Part shown: piece by piece, positions 1 through 5,644 of the stretch
Layout: each line of letters begins with the position of its first letter
Position numbering within the stretch: the stretch's first letter is position 1
IMG/VR virus record: IMGVR_UViG_3300020041_000169
Location: 1 to 5,644 of that record
Origin: a virus
Strand: one strand, 5' to 3'
DNA length: 5,644 bases
The notes under the pieces: generated by a model
The model's input: only the letters and a program-made list of their open reading frames with translations
Databases searched by the model: none
What the model was told of the DNA's origin: nothing
Position numbers and translations under genes: made by a program

Positions 1-121
1 CAAATGGAAAAAGTGATCGAATTACTTTCTTCGTGGCTTAAGTCCGCCCCTAAATGGGTTAAAGTTGTTGTGCCGCTCTTAATCGCTGGATTAGTCGCCA
101 TCTACCTCCTTTCTTCTTGTA
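1..121. repeat. Terminal redundancy, left copy; exact duplicate of 5524..5644, indicating a circular genome written past its start
   Basis: Read base by base, 1..121 (caaatggaaaaagtgatcg...cctttcttcttgta) is identical to 5524..5644. The offset of 5523 is the unit genome length. Confidence 0.95.
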
Positions 122-414
122 GTGCTATCCGTCAATTGGAGGTGGAACGGCGACAGACAAGAGAGATTAAGGACACGACTTCGGTACATCTCGTTACGTC
201 TGTTTATGTCCGGACTTCTGTGACCCGATCCGCTCGCGTGCGCTCTCTCCCCTATTCCGCCACGACAACCAAGGCCGCAAGGCCGCTCGTATCCCAAGAA
301 GCGGCCGCCCCTGCGGCCGCTGGAACACAGGCGGCAACAGCACGCCGATGTATCCAATCGTCAACTTTTCGCTCAGGTGCCGAAGTGACAACTTTCTTGA
401 TGCCCTCGCCGTGA
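4..414 (+). CDS. Hypothetical membrane protein with a lipoprotein-like signal peptide (136 aa); function unknown
   Basis: ATG at 4, TGA at 412..414. The N-terminus has K13/K17/K20, then a hydrophobic run V21-L36, then L36-S37-S38-C39 (nt 109..120). That fits the lipobox pattern [LVI][ASTVI][GAS]C. The remainder is basic, Ser/Thr/Ala-rich and low complexity. Caveat: roughly codons 75-136 lie in a GC-rich island where all frames on both strands are open, so the 3' extent is uncertain. In the circle its ATG (5527) overlaps the end of the 31-codon ORF 5444..5539. A strong terminator follows at 453..489. Confidence 0.5.
   Translation: MEKVIELLSSWLKSAPKWVKVVVPLLIAGLVAIYLLSSCSAIRQLEVERRQTREIKDTTSVHLVTSVYVRTSVTRSARVRSLPYSATTTKAARPLVSQEAAAPAAAGTQAATARRCIQSSTFRSGAEVTTFLMPSP
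300..321 (+). other. 9-bp GC hairpin (agcggccgc / ccct / gcggccgct)
   Basis: Pairs a300-t321 through c308-g313 are all Watson-Crick, with loop ccct (309..312). Eight of the nine pairs are G:C. Confidence 0.8.
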
Positions 415-442
415 GGCGTCAGCCCCTTATCGAGGGCATCAA
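397..442 (+). other. 12-bp perfect inverted repeat (ttgatgccctcg ... cgagggcatcaa) enclosing the stop codon of ORF 4..414
   Basis: 397..408 is the exact reverse complement of 431..442. The 22-nt loop (409..430) contains the TGA at 412..414 and a small inner ggc/gcc hairpin (415..424). Confidence 0.8.
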
Positions 443-452
443 TGAACGAAAG

Positions 453-489
453 AAATTGTGCTTGCACGCTTGCAAGTGCAATTTTTTTT
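453..489 (+). terminator. Rho-independent terminator
   Basis: aaattgtgcttgca (453..466) pairs with tgcaagtgcaattt (471..484) around the tetraloop cgct. The stem is 14 bp including two G:U positions in RNA (g460:t477, t459:g478). It has an upstream A-tract and runs into an 8-T run (482..489). It lies just downstream of ORF 4..414. Confidence 0.7.
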
Positions 490-505
490 GGTCATTGATG
501 ACCAA
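488..505. promoter_or_regulatory. Perfect palindrome TTGGTCAT-tg-ATGACCAA; possible protein-binding site
   Basis: ttggtcat (488..495) is the exact reverse complement of atgaccaa (498..505), with a 2-nt centre. It directly abuts the terminator T-run. Function not determinable from sequence. Confidence 0.3.
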
Positions 506-530
506 GGAGTTTGAGGAATGTCTTCAATGA

Positions 531-772
531 AAACCAATTATTCCGCTATTCGATAGCATTCGTCCTGTATCTTAATAAAAATATATCATAATAATTCTAT
601 TTATTAAAACTATAAAATAATGTCAAAAGGTCGAATGCTCTTGCGTGTTCTTTTCTTTCTTCGTATATTGCGTCCAATAAGATGAAAGAAAGAAAATTTT
701 TGTTAAAGTGCCCGTTTAACAACGTCTTTCTTTTCTCTTAGAACACATTTATTAACTAAAAATTATTGTCAA
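531..772 (+). promoter_or_regulatory. AT-rich intergenic region; probable promoter region for the 773->VP4->VP1 gene block
   Basis: No ORF longer than about 21 codons. 541..640 has 26/100 G+C by hand count and 571..620 is almost pure A/T. It sits between a terminator and the first of a run of co-oriented genes. I could not pick a convincing -35/-10 or TAnnTTTG element, so only the region is called. Confidence 0.4.
651..696 (+). other. Polypyrimidine/polypurine hairpin (ttttctttctt ... aagaaagaaaa) followed by a T-run
   Basis: 651..661 is the exact reverse complement of 686..696 (11 bp), with a 24-nt loop, followed by ttttt (697..701). A third related polypyrimidine tract, tctttcttttctctt, lies at 725..739. 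Confidence 0.5.
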
Positions 773-1060
773 ATGGTCAAAACTTTAAACAAAGTCACTC
801 TTGATTTTGAGCCTTTCAAGGCAGATGAACTCCTTCGTGTAAGTCTTAAGGTCGTGCGTGATGCGCCTTACGTTTCATCTGAATGGCCGTCACGTGTCAT
901 TCTTTGGCTATCCCGCCGTTATCATGTTGTCGCTTCTTATTTCTCTATTTCAGGTGACAATTCTTTCACTTTGTCTGCTATTATCGTAAGTGATAAGGAT
1001 TTCTTTCGTCAGTGGTCATATAATTCGTTGCTCGAATATGTTAGGCGACTTATTGCGTGA
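773..1060 (+). CDS. Hypothetical protein (95 aa)
   Basis: ATG at 773, TGA at 1058..1060. Same strand as all hallmark genes. Third codon positions are pyrimidine-rich, as in VP1/VP2/VP4. It is the first ORF after the AT-rich intergenic region. I recognise no motif. Confidence 0.6.
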   Translation: MVKTLNKVTLDFEPFKADELLRVSLKVVRDAPYVSSEWPSRVILWLSRRYHVVASYFSISGDNSFTLSAIIVSDKDFFRQWSYNSLLEYVRRLIA

Positions 1061-1310
1061 AAACGTAGTTCTTGCAGGAATGATTATCGATTTAGGTTTA
1101 ATCCCTGTTGATTTGTGCACTCCCACGTTAATATCTAAGATAAATGAGGAAATTTATGCTAAGGCAGAATCTGAATACTGGACACAGCAACGCGCCGATG
1201 ATGTACGTGAATTTTGTGAGTATTTCGCCCACAGGCGTCATGCTGACAAATTTTATTGTGAGCAATCTAAGTTGTTTGAGCCTCGTTTTGTTGAACTATT
1301 TGATAGTTAG
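1038..1310 (+). CDS. Hypothetical acidic protein (90 aa from ATG 1038; the track ORF starts at GTG 990)
   Basis: The open frame is 990..1310 with stop TAG at 1308..1310. Position 990 is GTG and would overlap the upstream ORF by 71 nt. In-frame ATGs at 1038 (23-nt overlap) and 1080 (no overlap) are more plausible starts. It ends 7 nt before the VP4 start. I recognise no motif. Confidence 0.5.
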   Translation: MLGDLLRENVVLAGMIIDLGLIPVDLCTPTLISKINEEIYAKAESEYWTQQRADDVREFCEYFAHRRHADKFYCEQSKLFEPRFVELFDS

Positions 1311-1317
1311 TTAATAT

Positions 1318-2292
1318 ATGTGTTACAACCCGCTTACCGTTACAATCAGTGAACCCAATGCGTCCGGAGGAATCCGCCGTGTTGCGGTTCCCTGTGGTAA
1401 GTGCTTTCAGTGCTTACGTGACTATCAGAATTCATGGTCTATTCGTATTCAGGAAGAGTTTAATAATTATGGTTATGGTTACTTTTTTACTCTCACTTAC
1501 AATAATGATTGCGTGCCTTTTGTTTGTGACCGTGATAGCGGTCGTTTATATCAGTCGGTGTGTAAGTCACACGTACAAGATTGGATTAAGAGGTTTCGCA
1601 CGAGGTTATCTCGAAAGGAAGGCGAGACGAAGGCAGGTATCAAATATTTTATAACCTCTGAGTATGGCCCTCGTACTTTAAGACCTCATTATCATGGTGT
1701 CATATTTGGTATTGATGAAATTGAATTCCGTTTGTTGCTTTCAGATTGGAACAAAACATTTGGCTTCACTACTTATAGGTTGATTCCTGCCCATAATTGT
1801 GGTGGTGCTTCTCGTTACGTTGCTAAATATTGCTCCAAAGGTTTTTTCAAGAATCCTTATGAGGTTCAAGGTATTGTTAAGCCAACTTTTCATCTTGTAA
1901 GCAAAGGATTTGGTTTTTCATATGTTGAACGTATGAAAGATTATCACCTCGCTGCTGATTGCTCTATTAACCCTCGCTTAGGCCGTTATTATCAGCGTGT
2001 CGGCGACCGTTCTCGCGTTTTTATTGGAAAATTTGGCTACAAGATGCCAAGATATTACAAGACAAAGATTTATGGTGAAAAAACTCGTTTATCGCGCAAA
2101 GTTGCTGATTATCTACATCAGGAGTCTGACAAATTTCGTGATAGTGCATTGGAAAGAATACAATCCGAAAGGAATTGCACGCTATCTGAAGCCATTCACA
2201 TACTTGATTTGCAAAATGATAGCGAAAGATTATGCAGAGAAAGAGAGATACGAAAGGCTTTAGGTGATTCTTACGACAAATCCCAAATTTAA
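1318..2292 (+). CDS. VP4: Replication initiation protein, HUH rolling-circle endonuclease (Microviridae VP4 / phiX174 A-like)
   Basis: 324 aa. The N-terminus reads MCYNP...VPCGKCFQC (Cys cluster, aa 25-32). Motif I is FFTLTY (aa 56-61, nt 1483..1500). The HUH motif is RPHYHGVIFG (H124-Y125-H126, nt 1687..1695). Motif III is SRYVAKYCSK, with two tyrosines Y167 and Y171 (nt 1816..1830). This matches the Y-V-A-K-Y arrangement of the phiX174 A active site as I recall it. Confidence 0.93.
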   Translation: MCYNPLTVTISEPNASGGIRRVAVPCGKCFQCLRDYQNSWSIRIQEEFNNYGYGYFFTLTYNNDCVPFVCDRDSGRLYQSVCKSHVQDWIKRFRTRLSRKEGETKAGIKYFITSEYGPRTLRPHYHGVIFGIDEIEFRLLLSDWNKTFGFTTYRLIPAHNCGGASRYVAKYCSKGFFKNPYEVQGIVKPTFHLVSKGFGFSYVERMKDYHLAADCSINPRLGRYYQRVGDRSRVFIGKFGYKMPRYYKTKIYGEKTRLSRKVADYLHQESDKFRDSALERIQSERNCTLSEAIHILDLQNDSERLCREREIRKALGDSYDKSQI

Positions 2293-2304
2293 TTTCTAAT
2301 TTAT

Positions 2305-3906
2305 ATGTCAAATCGCAATTTATTCGGTTCTACGCCGATACAGGTTCCTAACCGTTCCGGTTTCGATCTGTCGCACGAAAATATGCTCACACTTAAGTGT
2401 GGTCAACTCGTGCCTGTTATGACCGACCTTCTTATCCCCGGCGATAGGGTTAGCGTTGGTTCTGCTTTCGAGATCCAGTTGCCCCCTATGGCGACTGATT
2501 TCTACGGTCGTGTTCGTTTCAAGATGGAGGCCTTTTTTGTTCCTTGTCGCCTCCTCTATGCTGGTTGGCAGAAGTTTATGACCTCTCCTACTGGTAACAA
2601 TGCCCCTTCCGCTATTTCTGTTGGCTCTACACTGCCTTTCTGTGTTGTTCCTGCTGAAAATGCTTCTGTTCTTGGTCGTGGTTCCCTTGCTGATTATCTC
2701 GGCTATAAAGGTACTGCTAATACCCGTCAGCGTATTAATAACATATTGCGCTTTATGGCTTATCATAAGATTTACGATGATTGGTACCGTGATTCTCGGA
2801 TTCAGAAGCCTTTATTTGATGAGGCTGTTCCGATAAATACTTCGGCTAGTTCTATTTCGGTTGCTAATCTTCCTTATCAAGGTGTCAACGGTGATTCCTT
2901 TGTTTATGGTACTGCAACAAAATTTGCCGACGGTGTTGACCTTTTCAGTCTTCGTCAGCGTAACTGGGCTCGTGATTATTTTACAAATGCTACCCCTCTT
3001 CCACAGGCTGGCACAGGTGCCTCTTTGTCTTTTGATGTTGCCAATGATAGTGGTAGTTTTACTATTGCTTCCCTCCGTGCTGCGAACTCTTTGCAACAGT
3101 GGTTGGAGCGCAATAATATTGCTGGTAATAGGTATGCCGACCAAATTAAGGCTCATTTCGGTGTTATGCCTTCCGATGCTGTTATACAGCGCCCTATCTA
3201 TTTAGGTAGTTCTTCGAGTGTTATTTATAATCATTCGGTCTATCAGACTAACAATATGGGCGATGTTGTCGGTGACGGTTCCCCGAATCCTTTCACTTCT
3301 GTAGGTTCTAAATTTTCCGCTCCTATCGGTTCTGACAAATCTTCCCTTGTTGGTGATTTTTCAGTCACAGAGTTCGGTTACCTTATGGTTATCGGCTCTA
3401 TCGTCCCCGATGCCGTTTATGCAACTGGTGTTAACCGTGATTTCTTCCGGTTGCAGATTGGTGATTTTGCTTTTCCTCTGCTTCAAGGTGTTGGTGATCA
3501 ACCTATTTATAAGGCTGAACTGGCTAATGTCGGCGTAGATGGCAATACTATGGATGAAATGGAAACTTTCGGTTATACTCAGCGTTTCGCAGAGTATAAA
3601 TTTATGGAAGATGAAGTTCACGGTGGCCTTTGTGATGGTCAATCGCTTTCTGCTTTTGCTCTTAAGCGTTCTTTTGGCACTCTTCCTAATACTGCCCTTG
3701 GTGCCTCGTTCTTGGAAATTCCTGTTGACTATCTTGATGATGTTGCGGCCTCTGGTAGTTCGTTGCCTTCTTCTTACGGTGCTTGGGCTGATATTTTCTT
3801 TCAATATCGCAAGACTTCGGTCCTTTCTGCCTATACTATACCTACTCTTGGCGATCCTCATAACACACATCTTGAAACTGTTCCTACAGGTGGTCGCCGT
3901 CTATAA
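2305..3906 (+). CDS. VP1: Major capsid protein (Microviridae VP1 / phiX174 F-like)
   Basis: 533 aa. The N-terminus has NRSGFDLSHE, GQLVPV, LIPGDR and AFFVPCRLLY. These parallel the DLSH, PGD-like and F-Y-VP-x-R elements of phiX174 F and gokushovirus VP1. Internal WARDYFTNATPLPQ and LQQWLERNNIAGNRYADQIKAHFGV are typical VP1 blocks. A strong terminator follows. Confidence 0.95.
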   Translation: MSNRNLFGSTPIQVPNRSGFDLSHENMLTLKCGQLVPVMTDLLIPGDRVSVGSAFEIQLPPMATDFYGRVRFKMEAFFVPCRLLYAGWQKFMTSPTGNNAPSAISVGSTLPFCVVPAENASVLGRGSLADYLGYKGTANTRQRINNILRFMAYHKIYDDWYRDSRIQKPLFDEAVPINTSASSISVANLPYQGVNGDSFVYGTATKFADGVDLFSLRQRNWARDYFTNATPLPQAGTGASLSFDVANDSGSFTIASLRAANSLQQWLERNNIAGNRYADQIKAHFGVMPSDAVIQRPIYLGSSSSVIYNHSVYQTNNMGDVVGDGSPNPFTSVGSKFSAPIGSDKSSLVGDFSVTEFGYLMVIGSIVPDAVYATGVNRDFFRLQIGDFAFPLLQGVGDQPIYKAELANVGVDGNTMDEMETFGYTQRFAEYKFMEDEVHGGLCDGQSLSAFALKRSFGTLPNTALGASFLEIPVDYLDDVAASGSSLPSSYGAWADIFFQYRKTSVLSAYTIPTLGDPHNTHLETVPTGGRRL

Positions 3907-3914
3907 TTTTCCAT

Positions 3915-3946
3915 TCCAAGGGGCTTTGTCCCCTTGGATTTTCTTT
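3915..3946 (+). terminator. Rho-independent terminator after VP1
   Basis: tccaagggg (3915..3923) is the exact reverse complement of ccccttgga (3930..3938), with loop ctttgt, followed by ttttcttt (3939..3946). It starts 9 nt after the VP1 stop. Confidence 0.85.
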
Positions 3947-3972
3947 GTTATTTGATAAATTTACTTTGAATT

Positions 3973-4299
3973 ATGATACAAAAATGTAATTTCGACAAAG
4001 TTCGTGATATTCAGGAACATGTTCCTTCTCTCGCCACCGACCTTAATAAGGCTATTGAGACAAACACCGTTCAAGATACTGGCGTTGTCGCTGATTTCAA
4101 TTCCATTGAAGAGCCTAACGCTATAACTGGTCGTGTGTCTGATGCCTTCGAGGCTATAGACGCTCAGCGTGCAATTCTTGCTGCTGGTAAGGCTGCTAAG
4201 GCTAAGGCTGATGCTGCCGCCGCTGCTTCCGCTGCTGCTGCCGCCGCTGCTTCTGCTGCTGCTAAATCCGTGTCATCTTCAAAAGACGATGTTCTCTAG
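3973..4299 (+). CDS. Hypothetical acidic protein with Ala/Ser-rich low-complexity tail (108 aa); a scaffolding role is speculative
   Basis: ATG at 3973, TAG at 4297..4299, located between VP1 and VP2. The N-terminal two thirds are D/E-rich. The C-terminus reads AAGKAAKAKADAAAAASAAAAAAASAAAKSVSSSKDDVL. Codon style matches neighbouring genes. There is only a vague resemblance to gokushovirus VP3, not enough to call. Confidence 0.65.
   Translation: MIQKCNFDKVRDIQEHVPSLATDLNKAIETNTVQDTGVVADFNSIEEPNAITGRVSDAFEAIDAQRAILAAGKAAKAKADAAAAASAAAAAAASAAAKSVSSSKDDVL
4213..4260 (+). repeat. In-frame 24-nt tandem duplication (2 copies, 23/24 identical) encoding AAAASAAA x2
   Basis: 4213..4236 is gctgccgccgctgcttccgctgct and 4237..4260 is gctgccgccgctgcttctgctgct. 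The single difference is synonymous (tcc/tct). Confidence 0.9.
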
Positions 4300-4310
4300 T
4301 ACGAACATCG
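4287..4310 (+). other. 8-bp hairpin spanning the stop codon of ORF 3973..4299
   Basis: cgatgttc (4287..4294) is the exact reverse complement of gaacatcg (4303..4310). The loop tctagtac contains the TAG stop. Confidence 0.7.
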
Positions 4311-4346
4311 AAGCGCACTATATATACTTGATAATATAGTGCGCTT
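4311..4346 (+). other. 13-bp perfect stem-loop with loop ATACTTGATA; candidate viral-strand replication origin (nick site), alternatively a weak terminator
   Basis: aagcgcactatat (4311..4323) is the exact reverse complement of atatagtgcgctt (4334..4346). The 10-nt loop 4324..4333 contains ACTTGATA. That equals the core of the phiX174 origin CAACTTG/ATATTAATAAC, which gene A protein cleaves after the G. Only a 3-T tract follows, which is poor for an intrinsic terminator. Confidence 0.45.
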
Positions 4347-4373
4347 TGACACATAACAATAAATCAATATTTT

Positions 4374-5411
4374 ATGAAAGTAGAATATCATAGTTCTATG
4401 GAGAATAATAAAAATCTTTTCCGCAATATCGGTAAAGGTTTAGGCGGTCTTTGGAAAGGTGTTGAAAGTCTTTGGAATCGTGTTACTGGTCGTGGTCAGA
4501 CTAACGCCGAACGTGCCGCTCAGGGTTTCTCCGCTCAACAGGCTCAAATCAATCGTGAATTTCAGTCTGCTGAGGCTCAAATGGCGCGTCAGTGGCAAGA
4601 GGATTTTTATACACAGTATCAGAGTCCTCAGGCTCAGGTTCGTCAGTATCAAGAAGCTGGATTGAATCCTGCGTTAATGTATGGTCGTGGTGCTACTCCT
4701 GCCGCTTCCGCTTCGGTTGCGTCTAATGGTCCTTCGGGCGATACTGCCGCTGGTGTTGTTACTCCTGCTGACCCTTCTTCCTTGCTTAATATGATCTATG
4801 GAATGGCTAAGTTACCTTCTGAAATTGATCTTCTTAATGCTCAGGCAGATGATTTCCGCGCTGCCGCTACAGGCAAGAATATTCAAAATTCCTACTCTCC
4901 TCAAATCTTTGATCAAAACCTTCGTAAGGGCGAGATGGATATACTTAATACTTCCGCTGCTATTACTACCGCCCAATATCAATGGTCTTTGATGTCCTCG
5001 CAGGAGCAATTGAACACTATTAAGGCTTCCCTTACAGAAGCTGAAATTTCAGATGTTCTTGCGTCTGCGTCTCTTAAGGAGAAGCAAGCCGCTACAGAGG
5101 TTCTTAAACAGTCAAATTTAGAGGTTACAAACGATTTGATTGCCGCTCAGATAGCTACGGAAAAAATGCGACCTCTTATGGTTGCCGCTCAGACTGTTCT
5201 TGCTCGCAATCAAGGTTCATCTATTTCTTTGGATAATTTCCAAAAGGAGTTGACTAATGAGCTTTCAAGAATTACAGGTGTTGCCGCTCCTAAAAATTCC
5301 GCTGATTTGTTTTTTAAGACTACAGCTGAATTCGGTCGGAGAATTGACAAAGGCATTTCTTCTGCTAAAAACTGGCTTACAAAAACTGGCAAACGCTTGC
5401 TGAAGTTATAG
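4374..5411 (+). CDS. VP2: Minor capsid / DNA pilot protein (Microviridae VP2 / H-like)
   Basis: 345 aa, TAG at 5409..5411. The Gln/Ala-rich N-terminal region reads ...QINREFQSAEAQMARQWQEDFYTQYQSPQAQVRQYQEAGLNPALMYG. It contains the AGLNP-x-L motif (nt 4656..) characteristic of microvirus VP2. A long helical, coiled-coil-like C-terminal half follows. An alternative start is M9 at 4398. Confidence 0.85.
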   Translation: MKVEYHSSMENNKNLFRNIGKGLGGLWKGVESLWNRVTGRGQTNAERAAQGFSAQQAQINREFQSAEAQMARQWQEDFYTQYQSPQAQVRQYQEAGLNPALMYGRGATPAASASVASNGPSGDTAAGVVTPADPSSLLNMIYGMAKLPSEIDLLNAQADDFRAAATGKNIQNSYSPQIFDQNLRKGEMDILNTSAAITTAQYQWSLMSSQEQLNTIKASLTEAEISDVLASASLKEKQAATEVLKQSNLEVTNDLIAAQIATEKMRPLMVAAQTVLARNQGSSISLDNFQKELTNELSRITGVAAPKNSADLFFKTTAEFGRRIDKGISSAKNWLTKTGKRLLKL

Positions 5412-5443
5412 AATCTGCTTATATTGCGAAAAATATTATCGTT

Positions 5444-5539
5444 ATGGGATTTTGGATAATGCTTGTCGTTTTGTTTGCAGTGTGTGTTTATTTACCTTAC
5501 AGATTATTATCAAAACTTATTGACAAATGGAAAAAGTGA
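5444..5539 (+). CDS. Small single-pass membrane peptide (31 aa), not in the supplied ORF track; candidate lysis or toxic peptide
   Basis: ATG at 5444..5446 and TGA at 5537..5539, translated by hand as MGFWIMLVVLFAVCVYLPYRLLSKLIDKWKK. A hydrophobic N-terminal 17 residues are followed by a Pro and a basic tail (R20, K24, K28, K30, K31). It starts 32 nt after VP2. Its last 13 nt overlap the ATG (5527) of the lipobox ORF, which suggests coupled expression. The short length makes the coding call weak. Confidence 0.35.
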   Translation: MGFWIMLVVLFAVCVYLPYRLLSKLIDKWKK

Positions 5540-5644
5540 TCGAATTACTTTCTTCGTGGCTTAAGTCCGCCCCTAAATGGGTTAAAGTTGTTGTGCCGCT
5601 CTTAATCGCTGGATTAGTCGCCATCTACCTCCTTTCTTCTTGTA
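5524..5644. repeat. Terminal redundancy, right copy; exact duplicate of 1..121
   Basis: Same comparison as the left copy. No mismatch seen over 121 nt. Confidence 0.95.
5527..5644 (+). CDS. Second copy (5' part, runs off the window) of ORF 4..414, created by the terminal redundancy
   Basis: 5527..5644 is identical to 4..121. It is the same gene in the circular molecule, not a paralogue. Confidence 0.5.
   Translation, partial: MEKVIELLSSWLKSAPKWVKVVVPLLIAGLVAIYLLSSC

Follow-up and report, generated by a model that had tools for sequence, protein, structure and literature searches.

Few phages of the human and animal gut are as abundant as microviruses. The lysis proteins of colicin systems are tiny lipoproteins with a stable signal peptide that takes part in killing, and a microvirus gene that also specifies a small lipobox protein is described here. 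It is a prolipoprotein-like open reading frame (ORF) of 136 amino acids (aa), located at 4-414 on the + strand (ATG start, TGA stop at 412-414) of positions 1 to 5,644 of the IMG/VR virus record IMGVR_UViG_3300020041_000169, a stretch of 5,644 nucleotides (nt) that was analysed as a whole and is called the window below. How microviruses other than the phiX174 group lyse their hosts has not been explained (PMC3394797, PMC7062461), and some Alpavirinae possess a putative M15 peptidase endolysin in the same VP2-VP4 slot (PMC3394797). No characterised microvirus lipoprotein was found in the literature, in agreement with what an initial annotation, made from the sequence alone, had stated, and the ORF is unmentioned in the papers on Alpavirinae and Bacteroidetes microvirus (BMV) proviruses (PMC3091885, PMC3394797). 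The analysis establishes that this ORF is a genuine, vertically inherited gene, which behaves as a core gene of a broad microvirus clade. The functional part of its product is presumably the N-terminus (~40-66 residues, would-be signal peptide included), and the leading reading, a tentative one, is that of a late envelope-disrupting lysis or release lipoprotein.

The protein begins with MEKVIELLSSWLKSAPKWVK, followed by VVVPLLIAGLVAIYLL and SSC39. Its n-region contains the lysines K3, K13, K17, and K20, after which come an uncharged 16-residue core (V21-L36) and the sequence L36-S37-S38-C39, so that the translation reproduces exactly the ORF length, charged n-region, hydrophobic core, and L-S-S-C39 box of the initial annotation. 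Four segments can be distinguished with selection statistics calculated from ten related genomes. Codons 1-20 (4-63) encode a long basic n-region with an amphipathic helix predicted at residues 2-14 (ratio of nonsynonymous to synonymous substitution rates, dN/dS, 0.13; synonymous rate, dS, 0.86), and codons 21-39 (64-120) encode the hydrophobic helix V21-L36 and the lipobox, with a low dS of 0.29. Codons 40-66 (121-201) cover the conserved beginning of what would be the mature protein, SAIRQ(L/M)EVERRQTREIKDTTSV.LVTS (dN/dS 0.12), and codons 67-136 (202-414) a variable, basic, disordered tail, with a dN/dS of 0.65 and a nearly flat variability over the codon positions.

An AlphaFold2 prediction, run on a 21-sequence alignment, is confident for the two N-terminal helices only: the amphipathic helix 2-14 (predicted local distance difference test, pLDDT, 87-90) and a helix spanning residues 17-38 (pLDDT ~90). 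The mean pLDDT is 59, and that of the tail lies below 50-53. The membrane helix and canonical lipobox first noticed are conserved across the family. The basic, Ser/Thr/Ala-rich region behind them is predicted to be disordered, as had been supposed, but the conserved, presumably functional part of the protein is N-terminal to it. As a separate observation, the nucleotides GCCATCTACCTCCTTTCTTCTTGT (window ~88-120, codons 29-39) are nearly invariant, and dS is 0.29 for codons 21-39 vs. 0.73-0.86 on both flanks, which hints at an extra cis-acting constraint on codons 29-39.

Selection on the encoded protein is most readily seen in codons 1-66, where the pairwise variability at codon positions 1, 2, and 3 is 0.139, 0.053, and 0.301, respectively, with a dN/dS of 0.18. 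The codon for Ser40 alternates between AGT and TCN among relatives, so selection acts on the amino acid, and indels in the ORF are in-frame or compensated. A first homologue search returned 176 proteins; among the 120 listed, from which identities and lengths were taken, homologues are 73-92% identical and mostly 133-136 aa long. More than 150 protein clusters retain the ORF, with lengths of 115-146 aa, and 15 of those listed stop at 115-121 aa. Nearly all clusters are from microvirus contigs of ~5.5 kb or from prophages, close homologues occurring on ~5.5-kb circular contigs and also on bacterial contigs of 70-170 kb.

These data bear on the explanation that the ORF is spurious, being open because GC-rich, structured DNA has few stops, and conserved as nucleotides only. 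Codons 67-136 would fit this explanation, with their dN/dS of 0.65 and with compensatory hairpin changes that alter amino acids, and the chance of 70 stop-free codons at such a base composition is estimated at ~10%. Nevertheless, the 5' half is not GC-rich and shows purifying selection at the protein level, distant genomes hold family members that can still be recognised at 28-48% identity, and in the 3' half every other frame is interrupted by stops in 10 of 10 genomes, while indels respect the reading frame. A chance ORF is, therefore, hardly credible for the gene as a whole, and for codons 1-66 it is ruled out by purifying selection together with the distant family members.

The distant members were identified by an exhaustive profile search of 1.84 billion representatives, which yielded 19 clusters, most of them 84-160 aa long and matching residues ~1-79 only. 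When members 28-48% identical to the query are aligned, P16, W18, A28, and C39 show no variation, and W11 and S38 almost none. The n-region motif W-L-K-x-A-P-K-W is conserved across the family, and distant members share the post-Cys motif RVQLDKRTTRE..DTT. Family sizes range from 61 to 160 aa, and even members of 61-73 aa keep the N-terminal motif, the membrane helix, and the Cys, the 61- and 73-aa ones having just 20-31 residues past it. These two members come from unannotated ORFs in GenBank records of microviruses from pig and rat faeces: one of 73 aa at 2989-3210 of MG945709, after VP2, and one of 61 aa at 1138-1323 of MG883716 (L095) and in ON840016, overlapping the VP1 start. A family hidden Markov model (HMM) scores them at 31.8 and 28.6 bits, respectively. 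As the best of 9,590 background ORFs, including those of ~570 kb of Bacteroidales DNA, reaches 10.6 bits, this model detects more than a generic lipoprotein signal. Unannotated ORFs of the lipoprotein-like family, with the n-region motif, the membrane helix, and the lipobox, are also contained in MT135345 and MG945902.

Searches of Pfam, PHROGs, NCBIfam, PADLOC, and PDB sequences with the ORF gave no significant family, and a search of GTDB species representatives gave no match. A Pfam match to ABA_GPCR, obtained in a scan at E <= 1, was dismissed as chance.

The gene lies directly 3' of VP2 in the window's clade, and the same holds for three of four distant genomes that were inspected (L092, L094, and MG945709), and in L092/L093, a prophage at a different chromosomal site, it occupies the same post-VP2 slot. 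The syntenic homologues that the initial annotation proposed to look for downstream of VP2 do, therefore, exist, and its placement of the gene at the end of the late operon agrees with the gene order, in which the ORF closes the VP1-VP2 late string. Its description as an accessory module must be abandoned: the identity of the N-terminal module is 53% vs. 52% for the capsid protein VP1 in L092, and 38% vs. 27% in L094, and the module is more conserved than VP4 and VP2 in the same comparison. Conservation like that of the capsid protein over such large distances indicates a core gene instead.

Whether the product is a processed lipoprotein has to be judged from the N-terminus. A lipobox is present in 152 of 154 family proteins (LSSC in 141, CTSC in 7, FSSC in 3, and LSGC in 1), the two exceptions being an over-extended gene call and a 42-aa fragment, and the Cys, whose conservation had been named as a check, is retained in these 152. 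The residue at +2 is S, G, or N across the family, and an identical L-S-S-C box occurs in the host's own SusD and DUF2807 lipoproteins. A positive n-region, an uncharged h-region within 7-22 residues, and a conserved lipobox of the form [LVI][ASTVI][GAS]-C are all found, and the charges around the helix, as read from the sequence, are compatible with an N-in/C-out orientation. On these grounds, Cys39 is probably lipidated and the precursor probably cleaved.

Two features speak against such processing. The auxiliary rule of PROSITE PS51257 places the lipobox Cys at 15-35, whereas it is Cys39 in the window and lies at 33-41 in the family, mostly at 36 or 39. Furthermore, the n-region is under strong purifying selection (the dN/dS of 0.13 at a dS of 0.86 given above), which is unusual for a discarded signal, and the protein could stay uncleaved. 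Since the signal is atypically long and its n-region motif is conserved, we infer cleavage and lipidation from the lipobox pattern with this reservation. The competing explanation is an uncleaved N-in signal anchor, not a lipoprotein, whose N-terminal helices (P16, W18, A28, C39) bind a host membrane enzyme, in a mode like the binding of MraY by phiX174 E, the Cys being kept for another reason. It draws on the part before the Cys being the most conserved one, with P16 and W18 invariant, on the position of the Cys, late for signal peptidase II substrates, and on the resemblance of a conserved membrane helix with a basic, dispensable tail to E. It is, on the other hand, hard to reconcile with the fit of positions -3 to +2 to a lipobox in nearly every member and with the identical box in host lipoproteins. 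The sub-threshold HMM and PDB matches (BamE, LppU, LptM), which are not significant, also align to lipoprotein signals only. The signal-anchor explanation is thus considered unlikely, for the enzyme-binding mode as for the unprocessed state. Bacteroidetes surface lipoproteins carry an acidic export signal after the Cys. The residues following Cys39 (SAIRQ...) contain no such signal, so a periplasm-facing location is likelier than surface exposure.

With a probable lipoprotein as the starting point, the lysis reading relies on the content and order of the genome. No endolysin, holin, or phiX174 E homologue was detected when nine window ORFs were compared with Pfam and six with PHROGs, the gene ends the late string, and it is coupled to a small membrane peptide, and these three circumstances together suggest a lysis role. 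Lysis is also favoured over a folded receptor blocker, because the conserved part consists of the membrane N-terminus and the Cys, with a mature part of down to 20 residues. We infer the processing, the timing, and the lysis role as follows. Transcription of the gene would go along with that of the late genes, and its translation would be coupled to that of the 31-aa membrane peptide encoded just upstream. The precursor would insert N-in/C-out through Sec, be lipidated at Cys39, and then be cleaved by signal peptidase II. Together, the resulting small lipopeptide and the unusually conserved, probably persistent signal peptide would damage or inhibit the envelope, leading to progeny release, by an action akin to that of a colicin lysis protein or a single-gene lysis factor and not to a holin-endolysin system.

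Several observations weigh against this lysis reading. Lysis proteins usually evolve fast, unlike the N-terminal module, which is conserved like a capsid protein. Profile and sequence searches gave no significant similarity to lysis, spanin, or exclusion families. In prophages, the ORF is the last gene before attR (the right-hand attachment site), a typical position for lysogenic conversion genes, and the adjacent 31-aa ORF could itself be a partner or an alternative lysis candidate. For these reasons, the lysis reading, although preferred, is held with somewhat less than even confidence.

The position next to attR and the temperate lifestyle of the virus are what a superinfection-exclusion or receptor-masking lipoprotein in the style of T5 Llp or phi80/N15 Cor would lead one to expect. 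Expressed from the prophage, early in infection, or both, such a protein would be sorted to the envelope and would bar the same and related microviruses from their receptor or from DNA entry, and it could also shield progeny from adsorbing to debris. The product is a small, lipoprotein-type protein, and the smallest ordinary members (84-89 aa) resemble Llp and Cor in size. Gokushovirus carriage gives superinfection immunity by an unexplained mechanism (PMC7062461). However, receptor binding would fall to the post-Cys part, which is the least conserved one across the family and is down to 20-31 residues in the members of 61 and 73 aa, whereas the pre-Cys part is conserved. The gene shows core-gene conservation and not the patchiness of morons, and it has no PADLOC or Pfam match. 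No promoter of its own was detected, either as a sigma-70 promoter upstream of the ORF or as the Bacteroides-type -7 motif TAnnTTTG on the + strand, both scans being weak evidence. Exclusion is, thus, a possible function, but a less probable one than lysis, and its blocking mode carries the same doubtful standing.

A third proposal is an envelope-anchored helper, either a tether for assembly or packaging or an aid to VP2-mediated DNA delivery. The strict synteny and coupling with the pilot gene VP2 fit this proposal, as does conservation equal to that of structural genes. It is nevertheless quite improbable, given that VP1 and VP2 are the sole building blocks of gokushovirus virions (PMC3091885) and that a periplasmic mature part would be on the wrong side of the membrane for assembly; in addition, we know of no precedent for a lipoprotein in microvirus morphogenesis. 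A more speculative variant of the lysis reading, to which little probability is given, treats the signal-like segment and lipobox as a single-gene 'protein antibiotic', a bait that would jam Lgt, signal peptidase II, or sorting. Inhibition of another membrane step of envelope synthesis by the same segment is a similarly remote alternative.

The 31-aa ORF (5444-5539, + strand; MGFWIMLVVLFAVCVYLPYRLLSKLIDKWKK) encodes a single membrane helix with a basic end of 11 residues. Its final 13 nt coincide with the first 13 nt of the lipoprotein ORF, ATG included, an overlap already noticed in the initial annotation. The 31-aa ORF is intact in nine of the ten related genomes; L008 lacks it, and VP2 directly adjoins the lipoprotein gene there. 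As the T-rich strand abounds in small hydrophobic ORFs in other frames, hydrophobicity alone is no validation of this ORF, and its conservation validates it weakly. No terminator-like site was found between the VP2 start and the lipoprotein ORF in a simple scan.

The 3' half of the gene differs in composition from the rest of the genome, with a GC content of 54-60% from ~200 to 500 vs. ~40% elsewhere, and harbours a cluster of + strand hairpins. Hairpin a (272-285; GGCC-GCAA-GGCC) lies inside the ORF tail and shows one compensatory change, in L011. Hairpin b (300-321; GCGGCCGC-CCCT-GCGGCCGC) encodes 'AAAPAAAG' and has eight pairs, 100% paired, three of which show compensatory changes, in four genomes. 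These changes partly alter the peptide (from AAAPAAAG to AVAPATAG, ADAPASAG, or EAAPAASG), so the constraint on hairpin b acts on the nucleic acid. Hairpin c (321-356), made of two stacked helices with one compensatory change, encodes 'TQAATARRCIQ', and hairpin d (394-446; TTGATGCCCTCG...CGAGGGCATCAA), whose pairing is conserved, holds the ORF stop codon in its loop. Hairpin e (447-490), followed by T8, is intrinsic-terminator-like (terminator-like hairpin and T8 at 462-489), and it is specific to the + strand because of its G-T/G-U pairs.

Over the ten genomes, the 57 hairpin pairs are 97.5% paired, and seven of them show compensatory double changes vs. 1.6 in shuffles (0 of 500 shuffles reach seven; slid controls give 0-3). 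The single-stranded DNA (ssDNA) fold of the stretch has a z-score of -6.6. The same layout recurs in the distant L092, with a lipoprotein core, GC-rich hairpins over the ORF tail (6125-6650), an AT-rich stretch with a purine/pyrimidine inverted repeat, and an attachment (att) site. Because its frame is kept open and it evolves nearly neutrally, the tail is translated but weakly constrained, and its Ser/Thr/Ala/Arg composition follows from the GC-rich, hairpin-forming DNA. The ~70-residue tail would, thus, exist because translation runs into the GC-rich + strand hairpins. The cluster is probably the late terminator, and it may also be a signal for complementary-strand synthesis, by analogy with the complementary-strand origins of G4, phiX174, and filamentous phages. 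The initial annotation had placed the strongest terminator region of the genome behind the ORF; a terminator-like hairpin with a T8 run is indeed located there, but a hairpin at 3915-3938 ranks higher.

Two other origins of the GC-rich 3' half were rejected. A minus-strand gene (ORF 252-467) is contradicted by stopped frames in relatives, and captured host DNA by the conservation of the region within the phage clade and its + strand-specific G-T pairs. Rfam and tRNA scans of the GC-rich stretch gave nothing relevant.

The window as a whole corresponds to a complete circular microvirus genome of 5523 nt plus a 121-nt assembly overlap, positions 1-121 being an exact direct repeat of 5524-5644 (assembler k-mer overlap). 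Because of this circular redundancy, the lipoprotein-like ORF start at 4 is also position 5527, and its first 118 nt recur at 5527-5644. The end of the repeat falls one base past the Cys39 codon, which is coincidental. On the + strand, two small ORFs (773-1060 and 990-1310) are followed by the rolling-circle Rep VP4 (1318-2292; PF23343), the capsid protein VP1 (2305-3906; Phage_F), a 108-aa ORF (3973-4299), and the pilot protein VP2 (4374-5411), assigned from matches to the PHROG 'pilot protein for DNA ejection'. The hairpin at 3915-3938, directly after VP1, is the strongest intrinsic-terminator-like site of the genome in a simple scan (nine pairs, six of them G-C, then a T-rich tail), and it may attenuate transcription into the 108-aa ORF, VP2, the 31-aa ORF, and the lipoprotein ORF. 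The GC content rises a second time (to 53%) at 4101-4300, in the alanine-rich, low-complexity end of the 108-aa ORF (AAGKAAKAKADAAAAASAAAAAAASAAAKS). Rfam matches to isrG and mir-4904 at 4180-4358 lie far below the gathering scores and look like chance.

The virus is temperate in Bacteroidales, a trait that, like the circularity of the genome with its assembly overlap, had escaped the initial annotation. In three bacterial contigs (L004, L005, and L007), the whole phage is integrated between SusC/SusD genes and ffh, and the neighbouring ffh is 92-94% identical to the ffh of Bacteroidales and Candidatus Cryptobacteroides metagenome-assembled genomes. The core TTGTTAA(A/T)GTGCCCGTTTA(A/G)C is duplicated at the two prophage ends and matches window positions 698-722, where the att core TTTGTTAAAGTGCCCGTTTAACAA is palindromic, with the arms TTGTTAAA and TTTAACAA around GTGCCCG. 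The core is located at 5176 and 10690 in L004, at 5161 and 10691 in L007, and at 15 and 5521 in L010. An apparent disruption of VP4 in the L004 prophage was a gene-calling artefact, VP4 being intact. An empty attB (bacterial attachment site) beside ffh was not found in 80 related Bacteroidales genomes.

No recombinase or integrase is encoded in the genome. For Bacteroidetes microvirus proviruses, host Xer-type recombination at dif-like sites has been proposed (PMC3091885), and integration of the present virus is consistent with this route. From its Phage_F capsid, rolling-circle replication Rep VP4, pilot protein VP2, duplicated palindromic site, and lack of an integrase, the virus appears Alpavirinae-like. 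Inverted repeats with polypyrimidine/polypurine arms (TTTTCTTTCTT / AAGAAAGAAAA) directly precede the att core (651-661/686-696) and extend across it (689-707/715-733), and a similar repeat, GAAAAGAAACGA / TCGTTTCTTTTC, is found at the corresponding place in L092 (6731-6755). These repeats may be accessory recombination or replication sites. Separately, the att cores of L009 and L011 differ in their centre, with TTGTTAAACACATTGTTTAG and TTGTTAAACTGTTTGTTTAG, respectively, instead of ...GTGCCCG..., which suggests a different integration site or specificity.

Small phage lipoproteins are known as such; what is new is a lipoprotein-like core gene of a microvirus clade in which the 'signal' is the conserved element. 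The compact protein family, with no Pfam or PHROG match and unannotated in the GenBank look-alike records, is itself new, and it is widespread in microviruses from gut and faecal samples. The gene, thus, offers a short candidate for both the lysis and the carrier-immunity questions outside the phiX174 group. The sharing of the same nucleotides between a protein tail and conserved ssDNA/RNA hairpins matters for annotation and for finding replication and termination signals. Should the 'protein antibiotic' alternative be true, it would provide the first lysis mechanism for microviruses outside the phiX174 group, and a new route to antibacterial targets in gut Bacteroidales.

Among known systems, colicin lysis or bacteriocin release proteins are alike in several respects. 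They are very small lipobox precursors with a short mature lipopeptide (20-50 residues in the compact members of the microvirus family), their signal peptide seems to have a role of its own, as may that of the microvirus family, where it is the most conserved part, and one operon-terminal gene with a terminator behind it encodes them. In contrast, the microvirus ORF has no match to the Pfam family Lysis_col, its signal is twice as long with a conserved amphipathic helix, its host belongs to the Bacteroidales, and the window's clade carries a relaxed tail of ~70 residues. The E protein of phiX174, together with single-gene lysis (Sgl) proteins, shares the condition of a small membrane protein in a tiny phage devoid of endolysin and holin, with a conserved N-terminal membrane helix containing prolines and a basic, poorly constrained C-terminus. 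However, E lacks a lipobox, and its gene is contained within gene D in another frame, whereas the microvirus gene is free-standing between VP2 and the att region, and there is no homology between them (no Pfam or PHROG match).

Llp of T5 and Cor of phi80 and N15 are likewise small phage lipoproteins, with a temperate context in the case of Cor and a precursor size similar to that of the family members of 84-89 aa, but no similarity in sequence or fold was detected, and the microvirus family differs by its variable post-Cys part and its core-like gene. Rz1-type and unimolecular spanins resemble it as phage lipoproteins encoded with late genes beside a small membrane-protein ORF. Unlike in spanin systems, the 31-aa neighbour has no periplasmic domain with which to span the periplasm, and the genome has neither endolysin nor holin; a spanin HMM match of one distant member reaches only 13.4 bits vs. 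a cut-off of 100. For the genome itself, the nearest comparison is with the Alpavirinae/BMV proviruses, which have the same VP4, VP1, and VP2 set and integrate without an integrase in Bacteroidales, at a short, palindromic, dif-like site (PMC3091885). Compared with these, the att core sequence and the Cryptobacteroides-like host are specific to the window's clade.

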